A stretch of 64,000 nucleotides of DNA, taken from IMG/VR virus record IMGVR_UViG_3300023440_000002, positions 44,382 to 108,381 of that record. One strand, 5' to 3'. The position numbers and the translations under genes are program-made. Numbering within the stretch: position 1 is the stretch's first letter; each line of letters opens with the position of its first letter. The stretch is from a virus. Positions 833 through 13,739 of the stretch are shown in pieces. A model generated the notes under the pieces. The model was not told the DNA's origin, did no database searches, and was given only the letters and a program-made list of their open reading frames with translations.

Positions 833-878
833 GGTGTATGTAAATGGCAAGTAGCTAACCCAATAAGGGAAAACCTAG

Positions 879-1040
879 ATGGAAACTAAATCTATTGCAA
901 GTAAGGTTCACAGGAAGGTTCACGAGCAGATTCGCTGGCAGGTTTTCGGGCAGATTAACTGGGAGATTAGCAACCAGGTTGCCGATCAAATAATCAATCC
1001 AATAATCAATCCAATAAGGGATGATCTAAATGGAAACTAA
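879..1040 (+). CDS. array repeat peptide (53 aa)
   Basis: METKSIAS...NPIRDDLNGN, hand-translated. Confidence 0.75.
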   Translation: METKSIASKVHRKVHEQIRWQVFGQINWEISNQVADQIINPIINPIRDDLNGN

Positions 1041-1263
1041 AGATATTACAAAAGATGTTCGCCAGCAGGTTTACGAGCAGGTTCGCCAGGAGGTTTACGA
1101 GCAGGTTAACCGGCAGGTTCGCTGGAAGGTTGACGAGCAGATTCACTGGCAAATTCGAGATCAGGTTTACCGGCAGGTTCGCTGGCAGATTAACTGGCAG
1201 ATTAGCGATCAGGTTAACTGACAAATAACTGAACCAATAAAGGATAACCTAGATGAAAGCTAA
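1030..1263 (+). pseudogene. array unit with in-frame TGA (1219-1221) at a Trp-type position
   Basis: ...QVN*QITEPIKDNLDES*; frame intact to the family stop. Confidence 0.65.
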
Positions 1264-1378
1264 AGATATCACAAAAGAGGTTTACCGGCAGGTTCGCTGG
1301 CCGATTCTCGAGCAGGTTGCCGATCAAATAATCAATCCAATAATCAATCCAATAAGGGAAAACCTAAATGGAAGCTAA
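1253..1378 (+). CDS. array repeat peptide (41 aa)
   Basis: MKAKDITKEV...NPIRENLNGS. Confidence 0.7.
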   Translation: MKAKDITKEVYRQVRWPILEQVADQIINPIINPIRENLNGS

Positions 1379-1538
1379 AGTTATTACAAATATAACCGAT
1401 AAGATTTACAGTCAGGTTCTCAACCAGGTTAGCGACCGGATTCACGAGCAGCTTTACTGGGAGATTTACGGGCAGGTCCACGACCAGGTTCTCGGGCAAA
1501 TATCTGACCCAATAGAGGAAAACCTAGATGGAAGCTAA
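1368..1538 (+). CDS. array repeat peptide (56 aa) with embedded sigma-28 motif
   Basis: MEAKVITNITDKIY...DPIEENLDGS. Confidence 0.75.
   Translation: MEAKVITNITDKIYSQVLNQVSDRIHEQLYWEIYGQVHDQVLGQISDPIEENLDGS
1376..1402 (+). promoter_or_regulatory. sigma-28-type promoter inside array unit
   Basis: TAAAGTTA-N11-ACCGATAA. Confidence 0.65.
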
Positions 1539-1713
1539 AGTTATTACTAATAATATTTACGACCAGGTTCGCCAGAAGATTAAACAGCAGATTTTCGAGC
1601 AAGTTTATTGGCAAGTTAGCTTGCAGGTTCGCTGGTATATTAGCGATCAGATTAACCAGCAGGTTCGCGAGCAAATAGCCACCCCAATAAGGGAAAATCT
1701 AAGTGGAAACTGA
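1528..1713 (+). CDS. array repeat peptide (61 aa)
   Basis: ORF track; family caps. Confidence 0.75.
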   Translation: MEAKVITNNIYDQVRQKIKQQIFEQVYWQVSLQVRWYISDQINQQVREQIATPIRENLSGN

Positions 1714-1816
1714 AGATATTACAAAAGAGGTTCGCCGGCATATTGTCAAGCAGATTAACTTGCAGGTTCGCGATCAAGTAACTAATCCAATATGGACTGA
1801 TCTAAATGGAAACTAA
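1703..1816 (+). CDS. array repeat peptide (37 aa, GTG start)
   Basis: (M)ETEDITKEV...NPIWTDLNGN. Confidence 0.65.
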   Translation: METEDITKEVRRHIVKQINLQVRDQVTNPIWTDLNGN

Positions 1817-2012
1817 AGACGTTACAAATACAGCCGATCAGTCCCGCCGGCAGGTTCGCTGGAAGGTTGCCGATCAGGTTTTCGACCAGGTTAATGATCA
1901 GGTTAATGATCAGGTTTACTGGCAGATTAACTGGGAGATTAGCAACCAGGTTGCCGATCAAATAATCAATCCAATAATCAATCCAATAAGGGATGATCTA
2001 AATGGAAACTAA
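1806..2012 (+). CDS. array repeat peptide (68 aa)
   Basis: ORF track; near-identical to 2542..2748; TAAAGACG-N11-GCCGATCA at 1814-1840. Confidence 0.75.
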   Translation: METKDVTNTADQSRRQVRWKVADQVFDQVNDQVNDQVYWQINWEISNQVADQIINPIINPIRDDLNGN

Positions 2013-2187
2013 AGATATTACTAATGAGGTTCGCCAGCAGGTTTACTGGGAGATTCACAGTCAGGTTAACTGGCATGTTCGCAACCAGGTTCGCAACCAG
2101 GTTCGCCGGAAGGTTTTCTCGCAGATTTACGAGCAGGTTTTCGGGCAAATAACTAACCCAATAAAGGAAGATCTAGATGGAAACTGA
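2002..2187 (+). CDS. array repeat peptide (61 aa)
   Basis: ORF track; family caps. Confidence 0.75.
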   Translation: METKDITNEVRQQVYWEIHSQVNWHVRNQVRNQVRRKVFSQIYEQVFGQITNPIKEDLDGN

Positions 2188-2347
2188 AGATGTTACAGAT
2201 AAGATTTACTATCGAATTACCGGACAGGTCCGCAATCAGGTTGAGTGGCAGGTTCGCAGGCAGGTTCGTGACCAGATTATTGACCAGATTTACGACCAGA
2301 TTGACGAACAAATAGTTATCCCAATAAAGGAAAATCTAAATGACTGA
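2177..2347 (+). CDS. array repeat peptide (56 aa)
   Basis: METEDVTDKIY...IPIKENLND. Confidence 0.7.
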   Translation: METEDVTDKIYYRITGQVRNQVEWQVRRQVRDQIIDQIYDQIDEQIVIPIKENLND

Positions 2348-2552
2348 AGCTAAAGTTATTAAAAATAAGATTTACCGGCAGATTCGCGGCCAGATTTGCC
2401 GGCAGATTAACCGGCAGATTCGCTGGCAGACTCGCAGTCAGATTTGCCGGCAGATTAACTGGGATATTCGCGATCAGGTTCGCATTCAGATTTACGATCA
2501 GGCTAATGATCAAATATTTAATCCAATAAGGGATGATCTAAATGGAAACTAA
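2340..2552 (+). CDS. array repeat peptide (70 aa)
   Basis: ORF track; family caps. Confidence 0.75.
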   Translation: MTEAKVIKNKIYRQIRGQICRQINRQIRWQTRSQICRQINWDIRDQVRIQIYDQANDQIFNPIRDDLNGN

Positions 2553-2748
2553 AGATATTACAAATACAGCCGATCAGTCCCGCCGGCAGGTTCGCTGGAA
2601 GGTTGCCGATCAGATTTTCGACCAGGTTAATGATCAGGTTTACTGGCAGGTTTTCGGGCAGATTAACTGGGAGATTAGCAACCAGGTTGCCGATCAAATA
2701 ATCAATCCAATAATCAATCCAATAAGGGATGACCTAAATGGAAACTAA
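2542..2748 (+). CDS. array repeat peptide (68 aa)
   Basis: ORF track; TAAAGATA-N11-GCCGATCA at 2550-2576. Confidence 0.75.
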   Translation: METKDITNTADQSRRQVRWKVADQIFDQVNDQVYWQVFGQINWEISNQVADQIINPIINPIRDDLNGN

Positions 2749-2911
2749 AGATATTGCAAAAGAGATTCACGAGCAGGTTTACGAGCAGGTTTGCGACCAG
2801 GTTAGCGAGCAGGTTCGCCGGCAGGTTCGCCGGCAGGTTTACTGTCAGATTGGCGACCAGACTTACTGGCAAGTAACTAACCCAATAAGGGATGACCTAA
2901 ATGGAAACTGA
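2738..2911 (+). CDS. array repeat peptide (57 aa)
   Basis: METKDIAKEIHEQV...NPIRDDLNGN. Confidence 0.7.
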   Translation: METKDIAKEIHEQVYEQVCDQVSEQVRRQVRRQVYCQIGDQTYWQVTNPIRDDLNGN

Positions 2912-3113
2912 AGATATTGCAAAAGAGATTCACGAGCAGGTTGGCGAGCAGATTCGCCGGCAACTTTACGAGCAGGTTAACCGGCAGGTTCGCTGGAAGG
3001 TTGACGAGCAGATTTACTGGAAGGTTCGCTGGCAGATTCTCAACCAGGTTTCCGAGCAAATTACCAATCAGATTATCTGACAGATTCAAAACCCAATAAG
3101 GGATAACCCCTAA
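2901..3113 (+). pseudogene. last unit of array A, in-frame TGA at 3078-3080
   Basis: ...NQII*QIQNPIRDNP*. Confidence 0.6.
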
Positions 3114-3135
3114 ATAAACTAAGAAAGGAACTATT

Positions 3136-3357
3136 ATGGCAAAGCAAGAATCAACACCGTGGGATGACCTAGAAGGAAGATTGGTCAACTACAAAAAACT
3201 ACACCAGAAGAAAGCCACCGGACCACTCAAGGAAGAACTGGCTAAGGCAAAAACCCTAACTCAAGCTAGAAAGGTACTCTTCGGAGAAAAGAAGAAAAGA
3301 ATCAATTGCTCTAATTGCTCACACAAAGTTTGTGTTTGCGGGAAAACTTCCCGTTGA
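3136..3357 (+). CDS. hypothetical protein, C-terminal Cys cluster
   Basis: strong RBS AAGGAA; CxxCxxxxCxC. Confidence 0.65.
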   Translation: MAKQESTPWDDLEGRLVNYKKLHQKKATGPLKEELAKAKTLTQARKVLFGEKKKRINCSNCSHKVCVCGKTSR

Positions 3358-3365
3358 TTTTCGCA

Positions 3366-3539
3366 GTGAAGGTCAAAATAGAATCATTTGACTCGAGGTT
3401 TACTGAAATAACCCAAGACCTTTATTTCAGTAAACCTCCTAGTGAACAAGAAATAACCAAAGAGGCTTCTATTGACCCGCAAGTAAAGTGGTCATACATC
3501 GTAAAAAGAGTAATCATAATCAACAATGAAGGTATTTAA
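3366..3539 (+). CDS. hypothetical protein
   Basis: ORF 3315..3539, likely GTG start at 3366. Confidence 0.4.
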   Translation: MKVKIESFDSRFTEITQDLYFSKPPSEQEITKEASIDPQVKWSYIVKRVIIINNEGI

Positions 3540-3780
3540 CTTAATATTATGGCTTAAGGGATTGTTCTCTAAAAAGGGTATATCACACACTATTATGAAA
3601 CCCCAAGGATTTAACGCCCTTAAGCCTAGCACCCCATCTAATTGCATTTATTGCGAAAACCAATGGGAAGAATTCGACCAGCATTCTTATGAAAGATGCA
3701 GTAAATGCTTCGATCTAACCAACCTCCACCCAAGCAAAGTAACTTTAAAGAACAATAAAATCACCATTAACTTCGAGTAA
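3526..3780 (+). CDS. hypothetical zinc-finger-like protein
   Basis: CIYC...CSKC. Confidence 0.55.
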   Translation: MKVFNLILWLKGLFSKKGISHTIMKPQGFNALKPSTPSNCIYCENQWEEFDQHSYERCSKCFDLTNLHPSKVTLKNNKITINFE

Positions 3781-3784
3781 ACCC

Positions 3785-6010
3785 ATGACTAAATACGAAC
3801 AATTCAGACAATACATCGCCCAATTCCTCCAAGGCCCTAACGTAGAAGCGATACTTAATAGTTTAGCAGACGATTCAACTAAACTAGAAAACCTATCGAG
3901 ATCCGTAACAGACCAGCTAACCATATCGACAGCCTCAAGTGTTTACTTAGATAAAAGACTAGCTGACAAAGGAATAACTCGCCCACCAGAACTAGGCATG
4001 TCTGACATATCATTCCGTAAGATGGGAATACAAATAACTGCGGCTAAGCAACTAACTGGATTAATCCATACGATACTGGGCACTTTCTATGGTGAAGAAG
4101 CAGTAAGGGCTAACCTGAAGAATACTAAGACAGGACCTTACAACCTAGAAGAAGGAATGGAACTAGAGTTCGAACTAGAGGATGGTATTACTAGGGTGGT
4201 ATCATTCAAAAACACAGACTTCATAAACATCAACCAAGCTACGGCATCAGAGGTAGCATCAGTAATAACACGATTCATAAGAACACAGAACTTAGGAGCT
4301 TTTGCTAGTACAGTAAAGGACTTAAACACAGGCTTAGAGTTCATAAAGTTGTTCGGTGGAGCTGCGGGGCCATACTCAACAGTGACAGTCACAGGAGGCG
4401 AAGCTAATACAATCCTGCAATTTCCTAATATTAGAGGAACCGAGCTGTTAGTTAATGATACAGCATGGGAGATTACCCGTACCGTAGGCAGCACATTACG
4501 GTTCAGATGGGCAGGCAATTCCAAACCGGCATTAGACTTGATATTTCCAACCGACCGCGTAATGATTTACGGGCAAAGTTTTGAGTCTATTGGACTGGCC
4601 GGAACTTTTATTGTCTCAAACGTACGACCTCCACTGATCGGCCCAGACCTAGACGCAGGGTGGTTCGAGATAGAAGTCCCTGCTTTCAGTGGCTTACGTT
4701 CTACTCAGCCTGGCACAACACCCCCAACTAACGTACCACCCGACACTATCTATTCTTATACCATAGTTCAAGCCAACTGGGAAGAGCTAATGTTCATGAA
4801 GCCAGTCAAAGCTTTACCTAACCGCCAGGTGCGTTACGCCTTAGGTTGGGAGCCTAGAGGTGATTTGCTGCGAATTTATATGCCGGCAACAACTGGTATT
4901 GTCTCTAGGGGGATTGAAGGTGCAGCACACTTACATTCGCTTTACGAGGACGGTAATCTGGATGGGGCTTTCGGCTCTGTTACGGATCTTGACTCCGCAG
5001 TGGAAGTTATCTCAGATCGCATTATACGATACCGCCAACTAGGTTACGATAATCACGCTACGGGAGGAGTATTGTCTTGGGGTGGTAATGACTACGAAAT
5101 CGATTATGTCCGGCGTGAGCAATTCACCTCTACCGTATTTTTGAATGAGCCCCACGGATTGCCGGTAGTGCAAGATTCTTTCGGGCGCGACGTTTCTTTG
5201 GAAGTGGTATCTGTTGTGGTGGATATTATGCAGACAGACGATTTAGAATTCAAATCCCCCTATATGGTTGACCTAGGTAAGAACTACACCGTCAGGTCTG
5301 AGTTTGTTACTTCTCGCGCTAAGGTGTTTGCGGGTTCCACCCTGTCCACTTTGGATGTGGATGGTATTTTACCTAATGAGCCAGGGGTATTATTGTTCGA
5401 CTTAAACACCGACAAAGAAGAAGGCCCTATTCGTTATGTTGGGGTTCAGGCTCAAAACGCCCCTAACGTGGTGAATATAGTGACTATTTCCCAAAACGGG
5501 CTGAATGTTACCATTACCACAGATGCTCCTCACGGCGCTACTAGTGGCAGCAACATAGTAATATCAGGTACAACTTTCTTTGATGGGGTGTATCCCGTAG
5601 TGGGCGTACCTAACCCGACTACCATCCAAGCGATTTCCACTGTCGTCCAGGTGGAGAATGAGGTTGGGGTAGGTAGCTTGTCTGTTGTGGTGGATAATGT
5701 TCGGTCTACGTTGCTGCTCGACCCTAGCAATGAATTCAAGTTTGATCATGAAATAGGAGCTGACTTAACTTTGATGTCTTCTAGGAATGCCTACCAGCCT
5801 GCCTTAGATGGCTCAGATTACCCGTTCTACGTTACTGGGGTAGCTGAGGGTAGAGTTTTCGCTGCGGACGTCATAGAGGCTATTACGGCGTTAGGGATTA
5901 ATATCGAAATATTGATCGTCTACCCAAGCGATAAAGGCCTAGGCAACGAAGGAGGTTCAGATGGTAATGAAACCCCTGTGTCAGATAAAGTTACGGTTTG
6001 GGGTGTTTAA
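3785..6010 (+). CDS. putative baseplate wedge/tail structural protein
   Basis: 741 aa; N-terminal 'TISTASSVYLDKRLADKGITRP...DISFRK' resembles baseplate wedge (gpI/DUF2612-like) N-termini; beta-rich body with 'TITTDAPHG...IVISGT' module also repeated in the 1717-aa tail protein. Confidence 0.6.
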   Translation: MTKYEQFRQYIAQFLQGPNVEAILNSLADDSTKLENLSRSVTDQLTISTASSVYLDKRLADKGITRPPELGMSDISFRKMGIQITAAKQLTGLIHTILGTFYGEEAVRANLKNTKTGPYNLEEGMELEFELEDGITRVVSFKNTDFININQATASEVASVITRFIRTQNLGAFASTVKDLNTGLEFIKLFGGAAGPYSTVTVTGGEANTILQFPNIRGTELLVNDTAWEITRTVGSTLRFRWAGNSKPALDLIFPTDRVMIYGQSFESIGLAGTFIVSNVRPPLIGPDLDAGWFEIEVPAFSGLRSTQPGTTPPTNVPPDTIYSYTIVQANWEELMFMKPVKALPNRQVRYALGWEPRGDLLRIYMPATTGIVSRGIEGAAHLHSLYEDGNLDGAFGSVTDLDSAVEVISDRIIRYRQLGYDNHATGGVLSWGGNDYEIDYVRREQFTSTVFLNEPHGLPVVQDSFGRDVSLEVVSVVVDIMQTDDLEFKSPYMVDLGKNYTVRSEFVTSRAKVFAGSTLSTLDVDGILPNEPGVLLFDLNTDKEEGPIRYVGVQAQNAPNVVNIVTISQNGLNVTITTDAPHGATSGSNIVISGTTFFDGVYPVVGVPNPTTIQAISTVVQVENEVGVGSLSVVVDNVRSTLLLDPSNEFKFDHEIGADLTLMSSRNAYQPALDGSDYPFYVTGVAEGRVFAADVIEAITALGINIEILIVYPSDKGLGNEGGSDGNETPVSDKVTVWGV

Positions 6011-6170
6011 GATCTCCCCTTATCAGGTTAGCTACTTGCCAGCTAACCTGCCAGTGAACCCGGTTGCTAGTCTGACGTTGAATATGCCAGTAAACCTGTC
6101 CGCTAACCTGCTCGTAAACCTGCCGGTAAATCTGCTCGCGAATCTTATTAGCAATATCATTAGTTTTCAT
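5991..6170 (-). CDS. array repeat peptide (terminal unit; overlaps baseplate gene end)
   Basis: MKTNDIANK...NLIRGDLKHPKP. Confidence 0.7.
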   Translation of the reverse strand: MKTNDIANKIREQIYRQVYEQVSGQVYWHIQRQTSNRVHWQVSWQVANLIRGDLKHPKP

Positions 6171-6357
6171 CGATATCATCCTTTATTTGGTTAGCTACTT
6201 GCCAGCTAATCTGCTCGAGAATCGGCCAGCGAACCTGCCTTCTAATCTTATTGCTAACCTGCCAGCGGACCTGCCAGTGAACCTGCCAGATAACCTGCCA
6301 GTAAATCTGCTCGCGAACCTGCTGGCGAATCTCTTTTGCAATATCATTAGTTTCCAC
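6160..6357 (-). CDS. array repeat peptide
   Basis: ORF track. Confidence 0.75.
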   Translation of the reverse strand: METNDIAKEIRQQVREQIYWQVIWQVHWQVRWQVSNKIRRQVRWPILEQISWQVANQIKDDIDEN

Positions 6358-6520
6358 TTAGGTCGCTCCATATTGGATCAGTTATTTGCAGGCGAACCTG
6401 CTCGCAAGCCTGCCGGTGAACCTGCCATCCAACCTGCCAGCTAACCTGCTCGATAACCTGCTCGAGAATCTGCTCGTAAATCTGCTCGCGAATCTTACTT
6501 GTAATATCATTAGTTTCCAT
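6347..6520 (-). CDS. array repeat peptide (57 aa)
   Basis: hand-translated, open frame. Confidence 0.7.
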   Translation of the reverse strand: METNDITSKIREQIYEQILEQVIEQVSWQVGWQVHRQACEQVRLQITDPIWSDLSGN

Positions 6521-6707
6521 TCAGATTATCCCTTATTGGGTTGGCTATTTGCTGGCCAACTTGGTCGATAATCCGGTCGCTAACCTGCCGGTAAACCTGC
6601 TCGATAACCTTCCAGTAAACCTGGTCGTCAATCTGCTCGAGAATATGCCAGCAAACCTGATCGTAAACCTCCTGGCGAATCTCTTTTGCAATATCATTAG
6701 TTTCCAC
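6510..6707 (-). CDS. array repeat peptide
   Basis: ORF track. Confidence 0.75.
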   Translation of the reverse strand: METNDIAKEIRQEVYDQVCWHILEQIDDQVYWKVIEQVYRQVSDRIIDQVGQQIANPIRDNLNGN

Positions 6708-6891
6708 TTAGGTCGCTCCATATTGGGTTGGCTATTTGCTCTTGAACCTGCCAGTAAACCTGGTCGTTAACCTTCCAGTAAACCTGTCCGCTAACCTGCT
6801 CGTAAACCTGTCGGTAAATCTGCTCGCGAACCTGATCGATAACCTGCCCTCGAACCTGCTGGCGAATCTCTTTTGCAATATCTTCAGTCAT
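6697..6891 (-). CDS. array repeat peptide
   Basis: ORF track, start MTED. Confidence 0.75.
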   Translation of the reverse strand: MTEDIAKEIRQQVRGQVIDQVREQIYRQVYEQVSGQVYWKVNDQVYWQVQEQIANPIWSDLSGN

Positions 6892-7018
6892 ATAGATCAT
6901 CCTTGATTGGATTAGCTACTTGCAGGCGAACCTGCTCGTAAACCCGCCAGTTAATCTGGTCGTCAATATGGCCGTAAATCTTCCAGCGAATTTCTTTTGT
7001 AATACCTTTAGCTTTCAT
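6884..7018 (-). CDS. array repeat peptide (44 aa)
   Basis: hand-translated, open frame. Confidence 0.7.
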   Translation of the reverse strand: MKAKGITKEIRWKIYGHIDDQINWRVYEQVRLQVANPIKDDLYD

Positions 7019-7193
7019 TAAGGTTATCCTTTATTGGGTTAGCTATTTGATCGAAAACCTGGTCGATAACCTGCCCGCTAACCTGGTCGTCAATCTGCTC
7101 GAGAATATGCCAATAAGCCTGGTCGTTAACCTGCCCCAGAACCTGCTGGCGAACCTGCCAACGAACCTCATTAGTAATAACTTTAGCTTTCAT
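7008..7193 (-). CDS. array repeat peptide
   Basis: ORF track. Confidence 0.75.
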   Translation of the reverse strand: MKAKVITNEVRWQVRQQVLGQVNDQAYWHILEQIDDQVSGQVIDQVFDQIANPIKDNLNES

Positions 7194-7341
7194 CTAGGTC
7201 GCTCCATATTGGATCAGTTATTTGCAGGCGAACCTGGTCTCGAATCTCCCAGTGAACCTGCTCGATAACCTGCAAGTTAATTTGCTTGACAATATGCAGG
7301 TAAGCCTTCCAGCTAATCTCTTTTGCAATATCTTCAGTCAT
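7183..7341 (-). CDS. array repeat peptide (52 aa)
   Basis: hand-translated, open frame. Confidence 0.7.
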   Translation of the reverse strand: MTEDIAKEISWKAYLHIVKQINLQVIEQVHWEIRDQVRLQITDPIWSDLDES

Positions 7342-7525
7342 TTAGGTTTTCCTTTATTGGGTTAGTTATTTGCCAGCTAACCTGCTCGAGAATCTGCCAA
7401 TTAACCTGCTCGATAACCTGCCAGTAAACCTGTTCGATAACCTGCCGGCGGATCTGGTTGCGAACCTGCCCGCTAACCTGGTCGTCAATCTGACAGTAAA
7501 CTTGCCAGCTAATATCTTCAGTCAT
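7334..7525 (-). CDS. array repeat peptide
   Basis: ORF track. Confidence 0.75.
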   Translation of the reverse strand: MTEDISWQVYCQIDDQVSGQVRNQIRRQVIEQVYWQVIEQVNWQILEQVSWQITNPIKENLND

Positions 7526-7700
7526 TTAGGTTATCCTTTATTGGGTCAGATATTTGATCATGAACCTGCCATCCAATCTGCCATCCAATCTGCCGGAAAA
7601 CCTGCCAGTAAACCTGTCGGCGAACCTTCCAGAGAGCTTGGTCGTTAACCTGATCATTAACCTGCCGGTGAACATCTTTTGCAATATCTTCAGTTTCCAT
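7518..7700 (-). CDS. array repeat peptide
   Basis: ORF track. Confidence 0.75.
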   Translation of the reverse strand: METEDIAKDVHRQVNDQVNDQALWKVRRQVYWQVFRQIGWQIGWQVHDQISDPIKDNLND

Positions 7701-7851
7701 TTAGGTTATCCTTTATTGGGTCAGATATTTGATCATGAACCTGCCATCCAATCTGCCATCCAATCTGCCGGAGAGCCTGGTCGTTAATCTGCCAGTAAAT
7801 CTGTTGGTGAATCTGCTGGTGAATCTCATTAGTAATATCTTTAGCTTTCAT
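7690..7851 (-). CDS. array repeat peptide (53 aa)
   Basis: hand-translated, open frame. Confidence 0.7.
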   Translation of the reverse strand: MKAKDITNEIHQQIHQQIYWQINDQALRQIGWQIGWQVHDQISDPIKDNLNGN

Positions 7852-8002
7852 CTAGGTCTTCCCATATTGGATTAGCTATTTGCTCGAAAACCTGCTCGTA
7901 AACCTGCCGGCGAACCTGGTCGTAAACCTGCCCGCGAATCTGCCAGTAAATCTCCCAGTAAACCTGCCAGTTAACCTCTTTTGTGATATCTTCAGATTCC
8001 AT
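7841..8002 (-). CDS. array repeat peptide (53 aa)
   Basis: hand-translated, open frame. Confidence 0.7.
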   Translation of the reverse strand: MESEDITKEVNWQVYWEIYWQIRGQVYDQVRRQVYEQVFEQIANPIWEDLDES

Positions 8003-8213
8003 TTAGATCTACCTTTATTGGGGTGGCTATTTGATTGCGAACCTGCTCGTAAACCTGCCGGCGAACCTGGTCGCAAACCTGCCCGCGAATCTGCCAGTAA
8101 ATCTCCCAGTAAACCTGATCATTAATCTGCCAGTGAAGCTTCCAGTGAACCTGGCCGTTAATCTGCTCTCGAACCTGCTGGCGAATCTCATTAGTAATAT
8201 CTTCAGCTTTCAT
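7992..8213 (-). CDS. array repeat peptide
   Basis: ORF track. Confidence 0.75.
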   Translation of the reverse strand: MKAEDITNEIRQQVREQINGQVHWKLHWQINDQVYWEIYWQIRGQVCDQVRRQVYEQVRNQIATPIKVDLNGI

Positions 8214-8325
8214 CTAGGTCATCCATTATTGGGGTGGCTATTTGATTGCGAACCTGGTCGCTAACCTGCCGACCTTACTTTACATAAACCTTATCGGTTA
8301 TGTCTGTAATAACTTTAGCTTTCAC
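8203..8325 (-). pseudogene. promoter-type array unit (stop at codon 17)
   Basis: (M)KAKVITDITDKVYVK*; carries TAAAGTTA-N11-ACCGATAA at 8291-8317. Confidence 0.7.
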
Positions 8326-8500
8326 TTAGGTCTCCACCTATTAGGTTACGAACCTGCCGGCGAACCTGCCAGTGAACCGGCAGGTTAATTTGCTCGACAA
8401 TATGCAAGTAAGTCTTCCAGCTAGTCTGCTGGTTAACCTGCTGATGGATCTTCCAGTGAATCTGCCGGCGAATCTCTTTTGTAGTATCTTTAGTTTCCAT
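8315..8500 (-). CDS. array repeat peptide
   Basis: ORF track. Confidence 0.75.
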   Translation of the reverse strand: METKDTTKEIRRQIHWKIHQQVNQQTSWKTYLHIVEQINLPVHWQVRRQVRNLIGGDLSES

Positions 8501-8612
8501 TGAGATTTTCCTTTATTGGGTCAGTTATTTGATTGCGAGCTTGATCGTCAATTTGCCGACCTTACTTTACATAAACCTTATCGGCTATATCTGTAATAAC
8601 TTTAGTTTCCAT
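8490..8612 (-). pseudogene. promoter-type array unit (stop at codon 17)
   Basis: METKVITDIADKVYVK*; carries TAAAGTTA-N11-GCCGATAA at 8578-8604. Confidence 0.7.
8578..8604 (-). promoter_or_regulatory. near-consensus sigma-28 promoter inside array
   Basis: TAAAGTTA-N11-GCCGATAA (one mismatch to consensus). Confidence 0.75.
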
Positions 8613-8787
8613 GCAGATCTTCCCTTATTGGTTCAGTTATTTGCCCATGAACCTGGTCGTGAACTTGCCAGTTAATTTGATCGAGAATCTGGCCGTGAAC
8701 CTGGTCGCCAATCTGCTGATAAACACCCCGGCTAATCTGATCATTAATCTGCTGGTGAATCTTACCTATAATATCTTCAGTTTTCAT
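8602..8787 (-). CDS. array repeat peptide
   Basis: ORF track. Confidence 0.75.
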   Translation of the reverse strand: MKTEDIIGKIHQQINDQISRGVYQQIGDQVHGQILDQINWQVHDQVHGQITEPIREDLHGN

Positions 8788-8962
8788 TAAGATCTTCCCA
8801 TATTGGGTCAGTTATTTGCAGGCGAACCTCCCAGTAAGTCTGGTCGCCAATCTGCCAGTAAACCTGCCGGCGAACCTGCTCGAGAACATGGCCGCGAATC
8901 TGATGGTAAATCTCCCAATCAACCTGCCAGTGAATCTTACTTGTAATATCTTTAGTTTTCAT
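8777..8962 (-). CDS. array repeat peptide
   Basis: ORF track. Confidence 0.75.
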   Translation of the reverse strand: MKTKDITSKIHWQVDWEIYHQIRGHVLEQVRRQVYWQIGDQTYWEVRLQITDPIWEDLNEN

Positions 8963-9125
8963 TTAGGTCTACCTTTATTGGAGAGGTTGTTTGCCAGCGA
9001 ACCTGCATATCAACCTGATCTAGAATCTGCCGCTGAATCTGCCAGCGAACCTGATAGTGAACCTGATCTCGAATTTGCCAGTAAATCTGCCAGTTAACCT
9101 CTTTTGTAATATCTTTAGTTTTCAT
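8952..9125 (-). CDS. array repeat peptide
   Basis: ORF track, start MKTK. Confidence 0.75.
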   Translation of the reverse strand: MKTKDITKEVNWQIYWQIRDQVHYQVRWQIQRQILDQVDMQVRWQTTSPIKVDLNEN

Positions 9126-9408
9126 CGAGGTCATCCTTTATTGGGTCGGATATTTGATTGTAAACCTGATTGTGAACCTGATCTAGAATCTGCCAGTAAG
9201 CCTGCCAGTAAGTCTGCCCGCTAGCCTGGCCTTTAATACGCTCGAGAATCTGGCCGTGAACCTCCCAGTGAACCTGATCGTAAATATGCCCGCTAGCCTG
9301 CTGGCCAACCTGATTGGTAATTTGATCGTCAACCTGCTCGTCAACCTGCCAGTAAATCTGTTGACTAATCTGATTATGTACCTTGTCGGCTATATCTTTA
9401 GTTTTCAT
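9115..9408 (-). CDS. array repeat peptide (97 aa, longest unit)
   Basis: ORF track. Confidence 0.8.
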   Translation of the reverse strand: MKTKDIADKVHNQISQQIYWQVDEQVDDQITNQVGQQASGHIYDQVHWEVHGQILERIKGQASGQTYWQAYWQILDQVHNQVYNQISDPIKDDLDEN

Positions 9409-9607
9409 TTAGGTCATCCTTTATTGGGTTAGCTACTTGCTGGTGAACCTGCTCGTGAACCCGCCAGTAAACCTCCTCGTAAGTCTCCTCGTAAACCTCC
9501 CAATAAACACAATCGTAAAGATGCTTGCTAACCTTATCGAGAATCTGATTGCGAACCTGCCAGTGAATCTCATCGTGAATCTTACCTGTAATACCATCAG
9601 CTTCCAT
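9398..9607 (-). CDS. array repeat peptide
   Basis: ORF track. Confidence 0.75.
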   Translation of the reverse strand: MEADGITGKIHDEIHWQVRNQILDKVSKHLYDCVYWEVYEETYEEVYWRVHEQVHQQVANPIKDDLNEN

Positions 9608-9770
9608 CTAAGTCTTCCTTTATTGGGATGGTTATTTGCCAGCGAATCTGATCGCGAACATGCCAGTTAACCTTCCAGCGAACCTGCTCGAGAATCTCCC
9701 AGTCAACCTGCTCGCTAACCTTCCAGCGAATCTGACTGTAAATCTTACTTGCTATATCTTCAATTTTCAT
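9597..9770 (-). CDS. array repeat peptide (57 aa)
   Basis: hand-translated, open frame. Confidence 0.7.
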   Translation of the reverse strand: MKIEDIASKIYSQIRWKVSEQVDWEILEQVRWKVNWHVRDQIRWQITIPIKEDLDGS

Positions 9771-9981
9771 TTAGGTCATCCTTTATTGGGTCGGATATTT
9801 GATTGTAAGCCTGCTCGTGAACATGCTGGCGAACCTGCCGGTTAACCTGCTCGTAAACCTCCCAGCTAACCTGGTCGCAAATCTGCTCGAAAACCTGGTC
9901 GCGAATCTCCCAGTGAATACCCCAATGAACCTGGTCGTAAACCTGCGAGCGAACATCTTTTGTAATATCTTTAGTTTTCAT
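9760..9981 (-). CDS. array repeat peptide
   Basis: ORF track, start MKTK. Confidence 0.75.
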   Translation of the reverse strand: MKTKDITKDVRSQVYDQVHWGIHWEIRDQVFEQICDQVSWEVYEQVNRQVRQHVHEQAYNQISDPIKDDLNEN

Positions 9982-10156
9982 CGAGGTCATCCTTTATTGG
10001 AGAGGTTGTTTGCCGGCGAACCTTACCGTGAATCAGCCAATTAACCTGTTCGCGAATCTGACTGTAAACCTGCCAGTGAACCTGCTCGTAAATCTGCCAG
10101 TGAGCGTGACTGACAATTCGATTGTGAATTTTGTCGGCTATATCTTTAGTTTTCAT
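9971..10156 (-). CDS. array repeat peptide
   Basis: ORF track, start MKTK. Confidence 0.75.
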   Translation of the reverse strand: MKTKDIADKIHNRIVSHAHWQIYEQVHWQVYSQIREQVNWLIHGKVRRQTTSPIKDDLDEN

Positions 10157-10331
10157 CGAGGTCATCCTTTATTGGGTTAGCTACTTGCTCGTGAACCTGA
10201 TTGTGAACCTGATCTAGAATCTGCTCGCTAATCTGCTTGCGAACCTCCCAGTAAGCCTCCCAGCGAATACCCCAATGAACCTGGTCGTAAACCTGCTTAT
10301 AAACCTTATTTGCGGCAATTTTAGCTTCCAT
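10146..10331 (-). CDS. array repeat peptide
   Basis: ORF track. Confidence 0.75.
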   Translation of the reverse strand: MEAKIAANKVYKQVYDQVHWGIRWEAYWEVRKQISEQILDQVHNQVHEQVANPIKDDLDEN

Positions 10332-10494
10332 TTAGTTCATCCCTTATTGGGTTGGCTATTTGATTTCGAATTTGCCTATGAATCTGCTTGCGAACCTCCC
10401 AGTAAACCTCCCAGCGAACCTGCAAGTTAATCTGCTTGACAATATGCAGGTAAACCTCCCAGCTAATCTCTTTTGTAATATCATTAGTTTCCAT
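10321..10494 (-). CDS. array repeat peptide (57 aa)
   Basis: hand-translated, open frame. Confidence 0.7.
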   Translation of the reverse strand: METNDITKEISWEVYLHIVKQINLQVRWEVYWEVRKQIHRQIRNQIANPIRDELNGS

Positions 10495-10657
10495 CTAGAT
10501 CTTCCTTTATTGGGTTAAGTATTTGATCACGAATCTGCCAGTTAACCCTCGAGTAAGCCCTCCAATAAACCAAATAATCAACCTGCTCGCGAACTTGCCA
10601 GTAAATCTTCCGGTAAACCTGCTGGCGAATCTCATTAGTAATATCTTCAATTTCCAT
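10484..10657 (-). CDS. array repeat peptide (57 aa)
   Basis: hand-translated, open frame. Confidence 0.7.
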   Translation of the reverse strand: MEIEDITNEIRQQVYRKIYWQVREQVDYLVYWRAYSRVNWQIRDQILNPIKEDLDGN

Positions 10658-10832
10658 TTAGGTCTTCCCATATTGGATCAACTCCTTGCTCACGAACTTG
10701 AGCGTAAATCTGCCAGTAAATCTGCCAGCGAACCTTCCGGTTAACTTTCTCGTGAATATGATTGATAGTCTGCCGGCGAATCTGCTGGCGAACCTGGTCG
10801 TGAATCTCTTTTGTAATATCTTCAGTTTCCAT
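10647..10832 (-). CDS. array repeat peptide
   Basis: ORF track. Confidence 0.75.
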   Translation of the reverse strand: METEDITKEIHDQVRQQIRRQTINHIHEKVNRKVRWQIYWQIYAQVREQGVDPIWEDLNGN

Positions 10833-11007
10833 TTAGGTCATTCCTTATTGGGTCGATTATCTGTACGTGAACCTGCCAGCGAACATGCAAGCGAACATGC
10901 TCGAGAATCTTCCAGTAGGGGTTCCGGCCAACCTGATCAACGACCTGCTCTCGAACCTGGTCGTAAACCTGCTTATAAACCTTATTTGCGGCAACTTTAG
11001 CTTTCAT
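10822..11007 (-). CDS. array repeat peptide
   Basis: ORF track. Confidence 0.75.
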   Translation of the reverse strand: MKAKVAANKVYKQVYDQVREQVVDQVGRNPYWKILEHVRLHVRWQVHVQIIDPIRNDLNGN

Positions 11008-11179
11008 TTAGATCTTCCTTTATTGGGATAACTATTTGCCCGCGAATTTGATCGTTAATCTGCTCGTTAATCTGTTCGCGAACCTGCCCTCGAACCTGCC
11101 AATAAGTCTGCCAGTCAACCTTCCAACTAATCTCGCTACACACCTTATCGGTTATACCTGTAATAACTTTAGCTTTCAT
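10997..11179 (-). CDS. array repeat peptide with embedded sigma-28 motif
   Basis: ORF track; TAAAGTTA-N11-ACCGATAA at 11145-11171. Confidence 0.75.
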   Translation of the reverse strand: MKAKVITGITDKVCSEISWKVDWQTYWQVRGQVREQINEQINDQIRGQIVIPIKEDLNES

Positions 11180-11191
11180 TTAGATCTTCCT

Positions 11192-11734
11192 TTATTCGCT
11201 CAAATACACAGCACCATCAACAAAACCCGGAGCTATCTTGTCCAGGTACTCTCTATTCATATAGGTTTGGTTCTTGATTAGTTCTTTATAATTCGGAGGG
11301 TTAAATATCTTATTGATCTCTTTATGAATAAAAACATTATCTTTAATTGTCTTTTTAGAATCTTCCATTGTTACAATACATCGAGACGGACAATAATAAT
11401 ACAAGTTATGCATCATCATTGTTGCTTTTGGCGTTAAGTGCCTGGTATCACACAAGGTTGAAATATAAAAGGCCATACTTAGGGCTTTCTTAATCAGGCA
11501 ATGAACTTTAAACCCTCTCTTTTTAATGTCCTGAATTGAAGCCCCTAGCTGAAAAAAAGGCGTAACCGGCCCTCCAGGACTGTCAATTGTTAAATAAACA
11601 TCCCGATGGGTCAACCTAATATAAACTGCCAACGCAGATGCCGACATAGAATCGGTAAGCTTTAGTTTAGATACTTCACTAGCTGAAACCTGACTAGGCA
11701 ACAGGATCATTAAAATTAAAAGTAAGTATTTCAT
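11192..11734 (-). CDS. ClpP-like (S14) serine peptidase with signal peptide
   Basis: IDSPGG, catalytic Ser in ALSMA, His in MMMH; hydrophobic leader MKYLLLILMILLPSQVSA; RBS AAGGAA. Confidence 0.75.
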   Translation of the reverse strand: MKYLLLILMILLPSQVSASEVSKLKLTDSMSASALAVYIRLTHRDVYLTIDSPGGPVTPFFQLGASIQDIKKRGFKVHCLIKKALSMAFYISTLCDTRHLTPKATMMMHNLYYYCPSRCIVTMEDSKKTIKDNVFIHKEINKIFNPPNYKELIKNQTYMNREYLDKIAPGFVDGAVYLSE

Positions 11735-11748
11735 ATTGTTCCTTTCTG

Positions 11749-11811
11749 TTAGGGTTTAATCTCTATTCCATTAACCTTATCGGCTATATCTGCAATATCT
11801 TTAGTTTCCAT
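11749..11811 (-). pseudogene. truncated promoter-type unit upstream of ClpP-like gene
   Basis: METKDIADIADKVNGIEIKP*; TAAAGATA-N11-GCCGATAA at 11777-11803. Confidence 0.65.
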
Positions 11812-11974
11812 TTAGATCTACCTTTATTGGTTCAGTTATTTGCTGGTCAACCTGGTCGCAAACCTGCCAGTGAATATGCCAGTCAACCTGCCAGCGAATC
11901 TCCCAGTGAGCCTGGTCATTAATCTGACGGTCAACCTCCTGACGAATCTTTTTTGTAATATCTTTAGTTTCCAT
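11801..11974 (-). CDS. array repeat peptide (57 aa)
   Basis: hand-translated, open frame. Confidence 0.7.
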   Translation of the reverse strand: METKDITKKIRQEVDRQINDQAHWEIRWQVDWHIHWQVCDQVDQQITEPIKVDLNGN

Positions 11975-12161
11975 TTAGGTCTTCCTTTATTGGGAGGGTT
12001 ATTCGGTCGTCAATCTTTAAGTGGATCTCCCAGAGAACCTCCCGGCGAATCTTCCGACTAATCTGCTCATCAACCTGCTCATCAACCTGCTTATAAGTTT
12101 GGTTGTCAATCTGCAAGCGAACCTGCTCGATAACCTCATTAGTGATATCTTTAGTTTTCAT
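11964..12161 (-). CDS. array repeat peptide
   Basis: ORF track; near-copy of 12477..12662. Confidence 0.75.
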   Translation of the reverse strand: MKTKDITNEVIEQVRLQIDNQTYKQVDEQVDEQISRKIRREVLWEIHLKIDDRITLPIKEDLNGN

Positions 12162-12324
12162 CTAGGTTTTCCTTTATTGGGTTAGCTACTTGCTCGTGAA
12201 CCTGCTCGTCAACATTCCAGTAAATCTCCCGGCTCACCCCCCTGTCAACCTGCCGGTTAATCTGCCAATAAACCTGATCGCTAATCTCCCGACGAATTTT
12301 ATTACCAGTATCTTCAGCTTTCAT
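12151..12324 (-). CDS. array repeat peptide (57 aa)
   Basis: hand-translated, open frame. Confidence 0.7.
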   Translation of the reverse strand: MKAEDTGNKIRREISDQVYWQINRQVDRGVSREIYWNVDEQVHEQVANPIKENLDEN

Positions 12325-12487
12325 CTAGATCATCCTTTATTGGGTTAGCTACTTGCTCGTGAACCCGCCAGTAAACCTGCCTGTGAACCTTCCAGCGAAC
12401 CTGCCCTCTAGCCTGCCAATTAATCTGTTTGTGAACCTTCCAGCGAACCTGCTCGTCAAACTCTTTTGTAATATCTTTAGCTTCCAT
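12314..12487 (-). CDS. array repeat peptide (57 aa)
   Basis: hand-translated, open frame. Confidence 0.7.
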   Translation of the reverse strand: MEAKDITKEFDEQVRWKVHKQINWQARGQVRWKVHRQVYWRVHEQVANPIKDDLDES

Positions 12488-12662
12488 CTAGGTCTTCCTT
12501 TATTGGGAGGGTTATTTGCTCGTCAATCTTTAAGTGGATCTCCCAGAGAACCTCCCGGCGAATCTTCCGACTAACCTGCCAACAAACCTGCTCATCAACC
12601 TGCTTATAAGTTTGGTTGTCAATCTGCAAGCGAACTTTATTACCAATATCTTTAGCTTCCAT
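12477..12662 (-). CDS. array repeat peptide
   Basis: ORF track. Confidence 0.75.
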   Translation of the reverse strand: MEAKDIGNKVRLQIDNQTYKQVDEQVCWQVSRKIRREVLWEIHLKIDEQITLPIKEDLDGS

Positions 12663-12837
12663 CTAGGTCTTCCTTTATTGGGTCGAATACTTGATTGTAA
12701 ACCTGGTCGTGAACCTGTCGGCGAACCTGTCGGTGAACCTGCCATCCAACCTGCCGGAGAACCTGACAGTTAGCCTGCCAGCTAACCTGCCAGCTAACCT
12801 GCCAGCTAACCTTTTTTATAATACCTTTAGTTTCCAT
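12652..12837 (-). CDS. array repeat peptide
   Basis: ORF track. Confidence 0.75.
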   Translation of the reverse strand: METKGIIKKVSWQVSWQVSWQANCQVLRQVGWQVHRQVRRQVHDQVYNQVFDPIKEDLDGS

Positions 12838-13024
12838 CTAGGTCTTCCTTTATTGGATTAGTTATTTGCTCGAAAACCTGGTCGCAAACCTGCCCGCGAA
12901 TCTGCCAGTAAATCTCCCAGTAAAACTGATCATCAATCTGCCAGTGAACCTGGCCGCGAATCTGCCAGTAAACCTGGTCGTCAACCTCCCGACGAATCTT
13001 TTTTATAATACCTTTAGTTTCCAT
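12827..13024 (-). CDS. array repeat peptide
   Basis: ORF track. Confidence 0.75.
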   Translation of the reverse strand: METKGIIKKIRREVDDQVYWQIRGQVHWQIDDQFYWEIYWQIRGQVCDQVFEQITNPIKEDLDGN

Positions 13025-13187
13025 CTAGGTCTTCCCTTATTGGATTGGTTATTTGACCGAAAACCTGCAAGAGAGCATGCAAGCGAACATGCAAGCGAAC
13101 CTTCCAATAAATCTGCCAGTCATCCTGCCAGTTAACCTGCTCGAGAATCTGGTCGCGAATCTCTTTTATAGTATCACTAGCTTCCAT
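13014..13187 (-). CDS. array repeat peptide (57 aa)
   Basis: MEASDTIKEIRDQI...NPIREDLDGN. Confidence 0.7.
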   Translation of the reverse strand: MEASDTIKEIRDQILEQVNWQDDWQIYWKVRLHVRLHALLQVFGQITNPIREDLDGN

Positions 13188-13386
13188 CTAGGTTTTCCTT
13201 TATTGGGTCGGTTATTTGCTCGAAAACCTGGTCGTAAACCTGTCGGCGAATATGCCGGCGAACCTGCCATTCAATCTGCCCTCGAACCTGCCATCCAACC
13301 TGCCGGAGAACCTGACAGTTAGCCTGCCAGCTAACCTGCCCGCGAACCTGTTCGATAACCTCTTTTGCAATATCTTTAGCTTCCAT
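13177..13386 (-). CDS. array repeat peptide
   Basis: ORF track. Confidence 0.75.
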   Translation of the reverse strand: MEAKDIAKEVIEQVRGQVSWQANCQVLRQVGWQVRGQIEWQVRRHIRRQVYDQVFEQITDPIKENLDGS

Positions 13387-13564
13387 TTAGGTCTACCATT
13401 ATTGGGTTAGTTATTTGTGTGCGGATTTTACTGTAAGTACTCCAGCTGACCTGCATGTTAACTTCTTTTCGAGCGTTCCAATCAAAAACACTGCAAGCGG
13501 GTAGATTAGACAGATTAGCAATCTCATCAGTAATACCCAACCGTAAATCAATTATGTCTGTCAT
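13376..13564 (-). CDS. divergent array family member
   Basis: C-terminus QITNPIMVDLNGS matches family cap; N-half diverged. Confidence 0.65.
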   Translation of the reverse strand: MTDIIDLRLGITDEIANLSNLPACSVFDWNARKEVNMQVSWSTYSKIRTQITNPIMVDLNGS

Positions 13565-13739
13565 CGAGATCTCCCTTTATTGAAGCCATCACCTGCAAGC
13601 GGACCTCCAAGTGAATTGCAAAAGTGGTTTGTTGGTAAATGTAACTCCGAACATTAAACCTAAAGAGATCTGGGGAGTTACGTGTGCATTGACTTAGAAG
13701 GTCGATGGCTATCTTATGTTGAATATCAAGGACTTTCAT
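13548..13739 (-). CDS. divergent array family member
   Basis: C-terminus EVRLQVMASIKGDLDD resembles family cap. Confidence 0.6.
   Translation of the reverse strand: MKVLDIQHKIAIDLLSQCTRNSPDLFRFNVRSYIYQQTTFAIHLEVRLQVMASIKGDLDDRHN

Follow-up and report, generated by a model that had tools for sequence, protein, structure and literature searches.

The window analysed here is a stretch of 64,000 nt (G000:C1:44382-108381) of the IMG/VR record IMGVR_UViG_3300023440_000002, which has 108,381 bp and an estimated completeness of 68%. Its genes, among them those for tail-fibre-like proteins, a helicase, GroEL, SbcC/D-like nucleases and a family-B DNA polymerase, together with a baseplate-wedge-like giant protein just upstream, point to a large uncultured T4-like phage as the source. 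Near the start of the window lie two convergent arrays of very small open reading frames (ORFs), 13 on the plus strand (879-3113) and 42 on the minus strand (5991-13739), which were taken from the ORF listing and from our own parsing and total 55. These mini-genes are referred to as units; each consists of a core of four-residue repeats between an N-cap and a C-cap. Their anatomy and codon signature, their homology to the central tract of DUF6745 (PF20530) proteins and the recurrence of their neighbourhood were established computationally. The arrays are a large example of a recurrent and unpublished split form of DUF6745, and the mechanism and role given for it below are predictions. The features of the array region are as follows.

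845-881, plus strand: C-cap remnant (..KWQVANPIRENLDGN, then stop; frame 2 of 840-890) giving the Shine-Dalgarno sequence and start to the first plus-strand unit
879-3113, plus strand: array of 13 chained mini-genes, 11 intact (ORF listing and parsing)
3785-6010, plus strand: 741-aa ORF between both arrays, without a family match; listed here as context
5991-11179, minus strand: downstream block of the minus-strand array, 30 units, 28 intact (ORF parsing)
11170-11200, minus strand: C-cap remnant (..RIKEDLNES, then stop) directly 3' of the ClpP-like gene, restoring the coupling to the next unit
11192-11734, minus strand: gene for a ClpP-like protein of 180 aa within a unit (PF00574, E 1.1e-5)
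11745-11811, minus strand: truncated unit (METKDIADIADKVNGIEIKP, then stop), the 5' stump from a gene insertion (translation)
11801-13739, minus strand: upstream block of the minus-strand array, 11 units (ORF parsing; P0090 matches the unit profile)

Chained mini-genes and their codon signature

The counts and coordinates of the units given in an initial annotation of this DNA held on re-parsing. Fifty of the 55 units were intact (11 of 13 on the plus and 39 of 42 on the minus strand), as against the approximately 50 uninterrupted frames reported earlier, and the products of all the 52 scored units were distinct, in agreement with the statement that no two full units are alike. The start codon was ATG in 49 of these 52 units and GTG in three. 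The stops and starts of successive units overlapped by 11 nt at 41 junctions and by 8 nt at 4, the two overlaps that had been described together with a Shine-Dalgarno sequence encoded in the C-cap. The junction consensus CCAATAAAGGAAGACCTAAATGGAAACTAAAG contains this sequence (AAGGA/AGGGA, ∼9 nt ahead of the next ATG), the next ATG and the stop. The junction was strongly kept at the DNA level, and a degenerate 32-nt junction pattern found 38 matches in the window and none in 100 shuffles. The overall unit size ranged between 37 and 97 aa; lengths of 53, 57, 61, 65 and 69 aa (162–210 nt) followed the 12-nt steps noted before. In 36 of the 52 units the length was 1 mod 4, so that the tetrad register spans from Met to stop with both caps included. 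All the copies of the family and of the 12-nt repeat in the 108-kb contig were confined to the array interval, and a scan for promoters and terminators gave no excess over shuffles.

The 12-nt repeat has the consensus CAG-RTT-NNC-NRG, and the tetrad it encodes contains two variable residues (x1 and x2), a Q and a V or I. In the cores of the 36 register-keeping units the third phase was Q in 82% and the fourth phase V or I in 91%. When nucleotide entropies were computed per site over 320 in-register tetrads, the first, second and third bases gave 1.84, 1.48 and 0.84 in the x1 codon and 1.86, 1.31 and 1.27 in the x2 codon, and the third base gave 0.22 in the V codon and 0.99 in the Q codon. Codon use in the arrays departed from that in the rest of the phage for CAG (82% and 28%, respectively), CGC plus CGG (74% and 14%), AGC (57% and 12%), GTT (89% and 48%) and TAC (84% and 44%). 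From this entropy pattern and codon use it follows that the repeats derive from a shared DNA template; hardly any change has occurred at its synonymous sites, and in two of its codons the first and second bases are close to saturation. The same pattern was starker in an independent array (locus L143, described below), where TCT and GTT were invariant in 100 tetrads, x1 being NNG and x2 being RAT. The earlier proposal of coding, helical units with a V/I and Q stripe and two variable positions per tetrad is supported.

The 25 closest unit pairs differed by insertions and deletions of tetrads and by 43 synonymous versus 491 non-synonymous codons, a count that is inflated by misalignment of tetrads. 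The ratio pN/pS by a crude Nei-Gojobori (NG86) method was 1.25 at the x codons and 0.83–0.86 in the caps. We therefore claim a focused diversification of x1 and x2 and not formal positive selection, which these values do not prove; diversification by gain and loss of tetrads and by changes at non-synonymous bases, as suggested initially, was supported. A dN/dS near 1 had been named in the initial annotation as an outcome that would speak against its reading, and this point was not cleanly passed by the caps with the crude method, so the coding status of the units rests on other evidence. The signal of selection on the reading frame was clearer than that of diversification and comes from starts and stops phase-locked in one frame, from the avoidance of TAG at x2 and from the homology of that same frame to the DUF6745 tract. 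In the x2 codon, T was the first base in 34% and A the second base in 46%, almost never together; TAG was essentially absent where ∼11% is expected under independence. The NNC-type codons of x1 cannot become stops.

Relation of the units to DUF6745 proteins

The units found no family in Pfam, PHROGs, PADLOC or NCBIfam, and there was no match of PF20530 in the units themselves; matches to DUF5759, EnY2, GvpQ and YpjP reflected repeat composition and were below the cut-off. A profile of 49 units (A1) was searched against 1.84e9 protein representatives and matched 788 proteins at E<=1e-3. The top match P0013 (2570 aa, E 9e-50) was an unrelated EEIAEPVA-repeat protein, which shows that the E-values of this profile are inflated by repeats. 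Besides the window's own units and such spurious repeat proteins, the matches were proteins of 300–550 aa with the tract in the middle, and PF20530 was located C-terminal to the tract in 10 of 10 matches of one scan and in 21 of the 24 top matches of another. In order, these relatives comprise an N-domain (∼80 aa, with DSPxAA at its end), a (x-x-Q/S-V/I/L)n tract of 50–250 aa and DUF6745. As judged by these profile matches, the units represent the central tract of DUF6745 proteins in detached form and not the stand-alone orphan peptide family of the initial annotation; the DUF6745 family is in Pfam but uncharacterised. The tract feature is present in the units and the DUF6745 domain sits on a separate tract-less protein of 297 aa. 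Because the domain is absent from the units, they are a detached part and not members of the Pfam family.

The gene for this 297-aa protein, referred to as the core, lies at L009:12905-13798 (G000:C1:42904-43797), ∼1.1 kb upstream of the plus-strand array and outside the window. The arrays had been described correctly before, but their link to this gene was not made. The core matched PF20530 at E 1.5e-11 and is the sole copy in the contig. It bears the N-domain (KLTxEQ..IGL.T....DSPxAA) joined directly to a DUF6745 C-domain with an NxExR motif, with no tract in between, as do its ten closest relatives, and it aligned with the fused relatives except for the tract (alignments A2 and A3). Its structure was modelled confidently with a predicted local distance difference test (pLDDT) score of 94; no Foldseek match to this model was found in the PDB at E<=0.001, and the best VIA-align Z of 5.2 covered a 71-residue sheet only. 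Adjoining the core is a 128-aa ORF (L009:13922-14308, C1:43921-44307; phrog_27831), referred to as the partner, which is homologous to the partner in L143 (E 1e-9) and whose look-alike clusters are mostly viral. A possible partner-DUF6745 fusion in P0012 (23-residue match, E 0.026) was too weak and was not used.

Among the fused proteins, gp38 of the Mycobacterium abscessus prophage prophiGD102-1 (MW584211.1) with a (xxQL)n tract is a cultured example, and it is located among early genes (Gam, ERF, RepA, WhiB); fused DUF6745 genes were found among early or accessory genes in prophiGD102-1 and in a siphovirus. This protein and the metagenomic P0014, P0015 and P0021 share with the units the x-x-[Q/S]-[V/I/L] tetrad and its two variable residues, have the N-domain and C-domain in common with the core of this phage, and like it occur in phages or prophages. 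They differ in holding the tract inside the polypeptide, whereas here it forms 55 separate capped mini-genes beside a repeat-less core, and one genome can therefore express ∼50 variants at once rather than one. The tract of a fused relative was modelled as long helices with low confidence (pLDDT 36–55). Tract-less DUF6745 clusters of ∼300 aa were 69–91% viral. In a cyanobacterial cluster of 62 proteins in the ESM Atlas, DUF6745 was paired with LRR_4/LRR_8 leucine-rich repeats (LRR), so that more than one kind of repeat module may serve this family as the variable part. A MORN-repeat protein matched the centre of the DUF6745 profile (positions 63–96, E 7e-9), by which DUF6745 seems to contain a MORN-like hairpin.

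Metagenome contigs were scanned with the core alignment, which gave 28 loci. The three-part neighbourhood of a tract-less DUF6745 gene, a partner of ∼115–128 aa and chained mini-genes was found to recur in independent metagenome contigs, and core, partner and array stand in one neighbourhood here and in L143/L144, L145/L146 and L130. The loci of interest are as follows.

L143/L144: 6–7 chained units of the (xxSV)n type (caps MKTETV...DWVxERNKEV), with a tract-less DUF6745 protein of 315 aa and a partner of 113 aa
L145/L146: ∼15 units (caps MTSTNNS...KQKLKEYDFNK), with a core of 322 aa and a partner of 116 aa
L130: a core of 305 aa flanked on either side by W-rich xxQV units
L128 (viral contig): two or more chained units where the contig ends
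L131-133, L136, L147, L156 and L063 (the last in a virus): fused forms

The first four of these entries resemble the window in the repeat-less DUF6745, the partner of ∼115 aa, the chained capped mini-genes and the codon signature; they differ in other anchors (TCT-GTT for S-V), other caps and 2 to ∼15 units in the contigs examined, and none has been published. L143 and L144 come from sister samples and are near-identical, L143 1-1852 being collinear with L144 1373-2982 with an offset of ∼194 nt in the array, which corresponds to one unit. MORN-repeat proteins were observed beside the split systems in L143 (4200-5692 and 6462-6691) and L145 (8969-9244), and one of these is the protein that matched the centre of the DUF6745 profile. 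A search of viral contigs with the core found no relative, and the junction pattern of the window occurred in no other viral or metagenome contig. The CAGRTT-period-12 DNA pattern occurred at 119 loci in viral contigs, almost all of them unrelated repeats; the relevant ones were only L063, L030 and L128. A tree was built on the domains with the tracts removed and was read without a root or a direction of change. The core of the window fell in a 100/100 clade of 13 tract-less proteins, and the L143/L145 group was nested among fused forms in a different clade. By this placement, the fused or tract-less state has changed several times on the tree, and its well-supported branches force at least four changes.

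The interaction of a unit with the core was modelled from the alignments A2 (core) and A1 (unit). The interaction prediction score from aligned errors (ipSAE) was 0.88, 0.87 and 0.88, compared with 0.00 for the best of three controls; the mark for this score was reached by 58 of the 80 complexes with solved structures and by 2 of the 110 mismatched pairs, a calibration that holds only roughly here as our own alignments were used. The runs shared at least 91% of the contacts, with a pLDDT of the partner chain of at least 86. In the predicted interface all the 14 residues of the V/I/L phase and all the 14 of the Q phase touched the core, as did 12 of 14 x1 residues, and 9 of 14 x2 residues were not listed as contacts; the unit caps also lay in the interface. 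On the core, the contacts involved the helix 13-30, residues 68-99 round the tract insertion point and the invariant L11, W92 and W125. These results speak for, but do not prove, the docking of units on the tract-less core.

Predicted role of the arrays and alternative explanations

For translation, docking in vivo and biological role, we infer the following. The units are probably a detached and amplified DUF6745 tract that docks in trans on the phage's own core and provides it with alternative surfaces. Fused relatives have the N-domain, the (x1-x2-[Q/S]-[V/I/L])n tract and DUF6745 in one polypeptide; the single DUF6745 gene of this phage would have lost its tract, which would persist as ∼50 separately translated helical proteins with conserved caps. 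The 11-nt coupling of stop and start would let the units be made together from two convergent operons. Each unit would dock on the core at or around the tract insertion site through its invariant Q/V stripe and its caps, leaving x2 and partly x1 exposed, which are rich in W, Y, R, H, D, E and N. The predicted result is a mixed population in which one core, probably with the 128-aa partner, carries many alternative surfaces. Their diversity may arise through slippage of tetrads and unequal recombination on the fixed CAGGTT anchors, and also through changes that became fixed at the first and second bases of the x1 and x2 codons. Such surfaces would most likely serve to bind variable targets of the host or of rival phages, in counter-defence or host takeover. 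A diversified binder set for phage–host conflict, the most likely role by analogy with the non-homologous Tweety gp54, is suggested by the location of fused genes in early or accessory regions, by the mainly viral tract-less clusters, by the LRR pairing and by exposed residues typical of binding surfaces. The combinatorial binder set of the initial annotation stays the best reading of the role, to which the core, on which the units are predicted to dock, and the conserved partner, both missed there, have to be added; its alternative idea of a co-polymer found no support.

The repeat of the counter-defence protein gp54 of mycobacteriophage Tweety, with Che8 gp57 and PMC gp51 (phrog_3416), is a useful comparison. 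As in the units, its period is 12 nt or 4 aa, with two fixed and two variable residues; its third codon positions are invariant while the first and second vary, and the repeat number differs between relatives (PMC2884959). It is a tested precedent for what tetrapeptide tracts can do, as gp54 variants in repeat number overcome the prophage defence of Phrann gp29/gp30 (PMC9262239). The differences are its AAxx repeat and its single fused gene tuned by mutation, in place of a library of separate mini-genes. Homology with gp54 was rejected, as gp54 had no PF20530 match and the hhalign probability was 0.1%; phrog_3416 was matched by gp54 at E 1e-142 and by neither the units nor the core. In the literature, no paper was found that mentions DUF6745 or PF20530 or that describes such mini-gene arrays or the split architecture. 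The initial statement that no such phage system was known holds for the split architecture in the papers found, but the codon signature had been published for Tweety gp54 (PMC2884959) and the fused form exists in the M. abscessus prophage.

Transcription activator-like (TAL) effectors and the variable proteins of diversity-generating retroelements (DGRs) also have near-identical DNA repeats with variation on few codons; this is a resemblance only, as they have no sequence or fold relation to the units and there is no sign that a tetrad reads one polymer unit. Precursor arrays of ribosomally synthesized and post-translationally modified peptides (RiPPs) combine a conserved leader with a hypervariable core and adjacent modifying enzymes, whereas here both ends are conserved and one tetrad register runs throughout. 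With no RiPP modifying enzyme among the scanned neighbour genes and the units matching a protein tract, the arrays do not fit the RiPP pattern.

Other explanations share parts of this evidence. The units might act alone as free mimics of the tract, poisoning or titrating the tract-bearing DUF6745 proteins, or their ligands, of the host, its prophages or competing phages. Fused DUF6745 proteins do exist in prophages, the units keep a conserved Q/V face able to pair with a DUF6745 body and many variants would cover many targets; the conservation of a tract-less core and partner beside the arrays in several lineages argues that the units serve their own core, and such free action is considered unlikely. 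A structural role as a helical co-polymer, a bundle or a decoration of the virion or baseplate, varied for recognition of host surfaces, is even harder to credit. The units are long amphipathic helices and the arrays lie near the unassigned 741-aa ORF and a gene for a 2231-aa baseplate-wedge-like protein just upstream of the window (phrog_6, E 1.6e-17), but the fused genes of cultured phages sit among early genes and not in structural modules, in the metagenome loci the neighbours include MORN and small accessory genes, and there were no matches to structural families.

It is very improbable that the arrays are a non-functional by-product, either a selfish 12-bp/175-bp repeat that is open for being stop-less or an assembly artefact. 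In favour of this reading, other frames and the antisense strand are open over long stretches, the cap pN/pS is near 1 and another contig carries a collapsed recombinant unit of 29 aa (P0164). Against it, a single frame has its ATG, Shine-Dalgarno sequence and stop phase-locked at 45 junctions, and this is the frame homologous to DUF6745 tracts and the one in which TAG is avoided at x2. Furthermore, five broken units show that stops arise, yet 50 are intact, and the same architecture was assembled independently in other samples. We give slightly less credence still to the units being cassettes, silent or semi-silent, whose recombination with the core gene would rebuild a fused variable protein in the manner of pilin or VlsE, or being diversified by a retroelement with DGR-like NNC mutagenesis. 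The x1 codons are NNC as in DGR variable regions, and a cassette-like array adjoins a recipient-like gene; nevertheless, start, Shine-Dalgarno sequence and stop are present in each single unit, a homologous recipient is lacking in the tract-less core, and the variation is spread over ∼400 tetrads and not over one template-variable pair. A DGR origin was rejected as no reverse transcriptase (PF00078) was matched in the 108-kb contig, a genome ∼68% complete.

Several observations weigh against our main reading. The unit profile gives E-values inflated by repeats, the codon count of the closest pairs is inflated as well, and the crude pN/pS is near 1 in the caps and 1.25 at the x codons. With no solved structure like it, the DUF6745 fold offers no functional anchor, and the functional analogue Tweety gp54 lacks homology to the units and the core. 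For some of the tract-less cores the contig contains no array, for example L137 at 17.6 kb. In addition, halves of a split gene tend to pass the complex test, and the score may reflect the model's memory of fused DUF6745 chains; as the pair may pass through this likeness, the result shows the likeness to fused chains and not that the pair binds.

If docking and target binding are true, the arrays would represent a new strategy of standing diversity in phage–host conflict, would give the first functional handle on DUF6745, a widespread viral family without known fold or function, and would offer binder engineering a compact natural scaffold, in which each 4-residue helical repeat leaves two positions free. 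To our knowledge, the known routes to protein diversity in phages, such as contingency-tract slippage (as in Tweety gp54), DGR mutagenesis and shufflons, change one gene at a time. Here the variable part has apparently been cut out, capped, multiplied and chained, by which tens of variants would be present at once on a shared core. More tentatively, the system may be an expressed combinatorial library derived from a variable protein once tuned by mutation, in which an invariant core and partner are loaded in trans with any of ∼50 co-translated modules. The variable residue pairs of these modules would offer different binding surfaces, in a polyclonal, antibody-like manner, to variable defences or other targets of the host. 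Such a library would have evolved more than once, with an array size set by an arms race. For annotation, gene callers can easily overlook or fuse such units, ∼50 real genes in one genome, and the arrays tend to break assemblies.

Other features of the arrays and the window

The two plus-strand units 1030-1221 and 2901-3080 have a late in-frame TGA, their C-caps running on to 1252 and 3113, respectively. The minus-strand units 8203-8325 and 8490-8612 carry one common early TAA, which places their duplication later than this mutation. The first two genes of the minus-strand array (13548-13739 and 13376-13564) are divergent and almost without a tetrad core, with the C-cap and the coupling kept, and may be old, degenerate or differently specialised members. 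In the last minus-strand unit (5991-6170) the C-end is a variant one, and the unit runs into the 3' end of the convergent 741-aa ORF. The ClpP-like gene is flanked by the N-cap stump and the C-cap remnant of one unit. Its product has a signal-peptide-like N-terminus (MKYLLLILMILLPSQVSA), and an NCBIfam match to a ClpP-related head maturation protease was below the cut-off. No ClpP-like gene was seen beside the arrays in the other loci examined, and this one is probably a passenger and not a part of the system.

Across the units at 879-13739 of the window, two other frames were open for 30–100 aa, namely +1 (RFxxRFxx...) and antisense (NLPxNLPx...); their openness is put down to the repeat itself and could lead gene callers astray. 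The 29-aa product P0164 (JGI contig, 4059 bp) looks like a join at DEQV between the N-part of the minus-strand unit 12314-12487 and the C-part of the minus-strand unit 12151-12324; it could have come from natural unequal crossover in another sample or from a collapse in assembly.

The window showed no tRNA genes. A GroEL-like chaperonin is encoded by the phage at 53215-54978 on the plus strand (phrog_5725, E 7e-85). A 486-aa ORF at 14505-15965 on the plus strand had no match in Pfam, PHROG, PADLOC or NCBIfam. It is made of two similar halves, each with LHRG..., SSWTP... and EQEVIVKP motifs that may correspond to the R-S-ExE signature of ADP-ribosyltransferases of the T4 Alt/Mod type.

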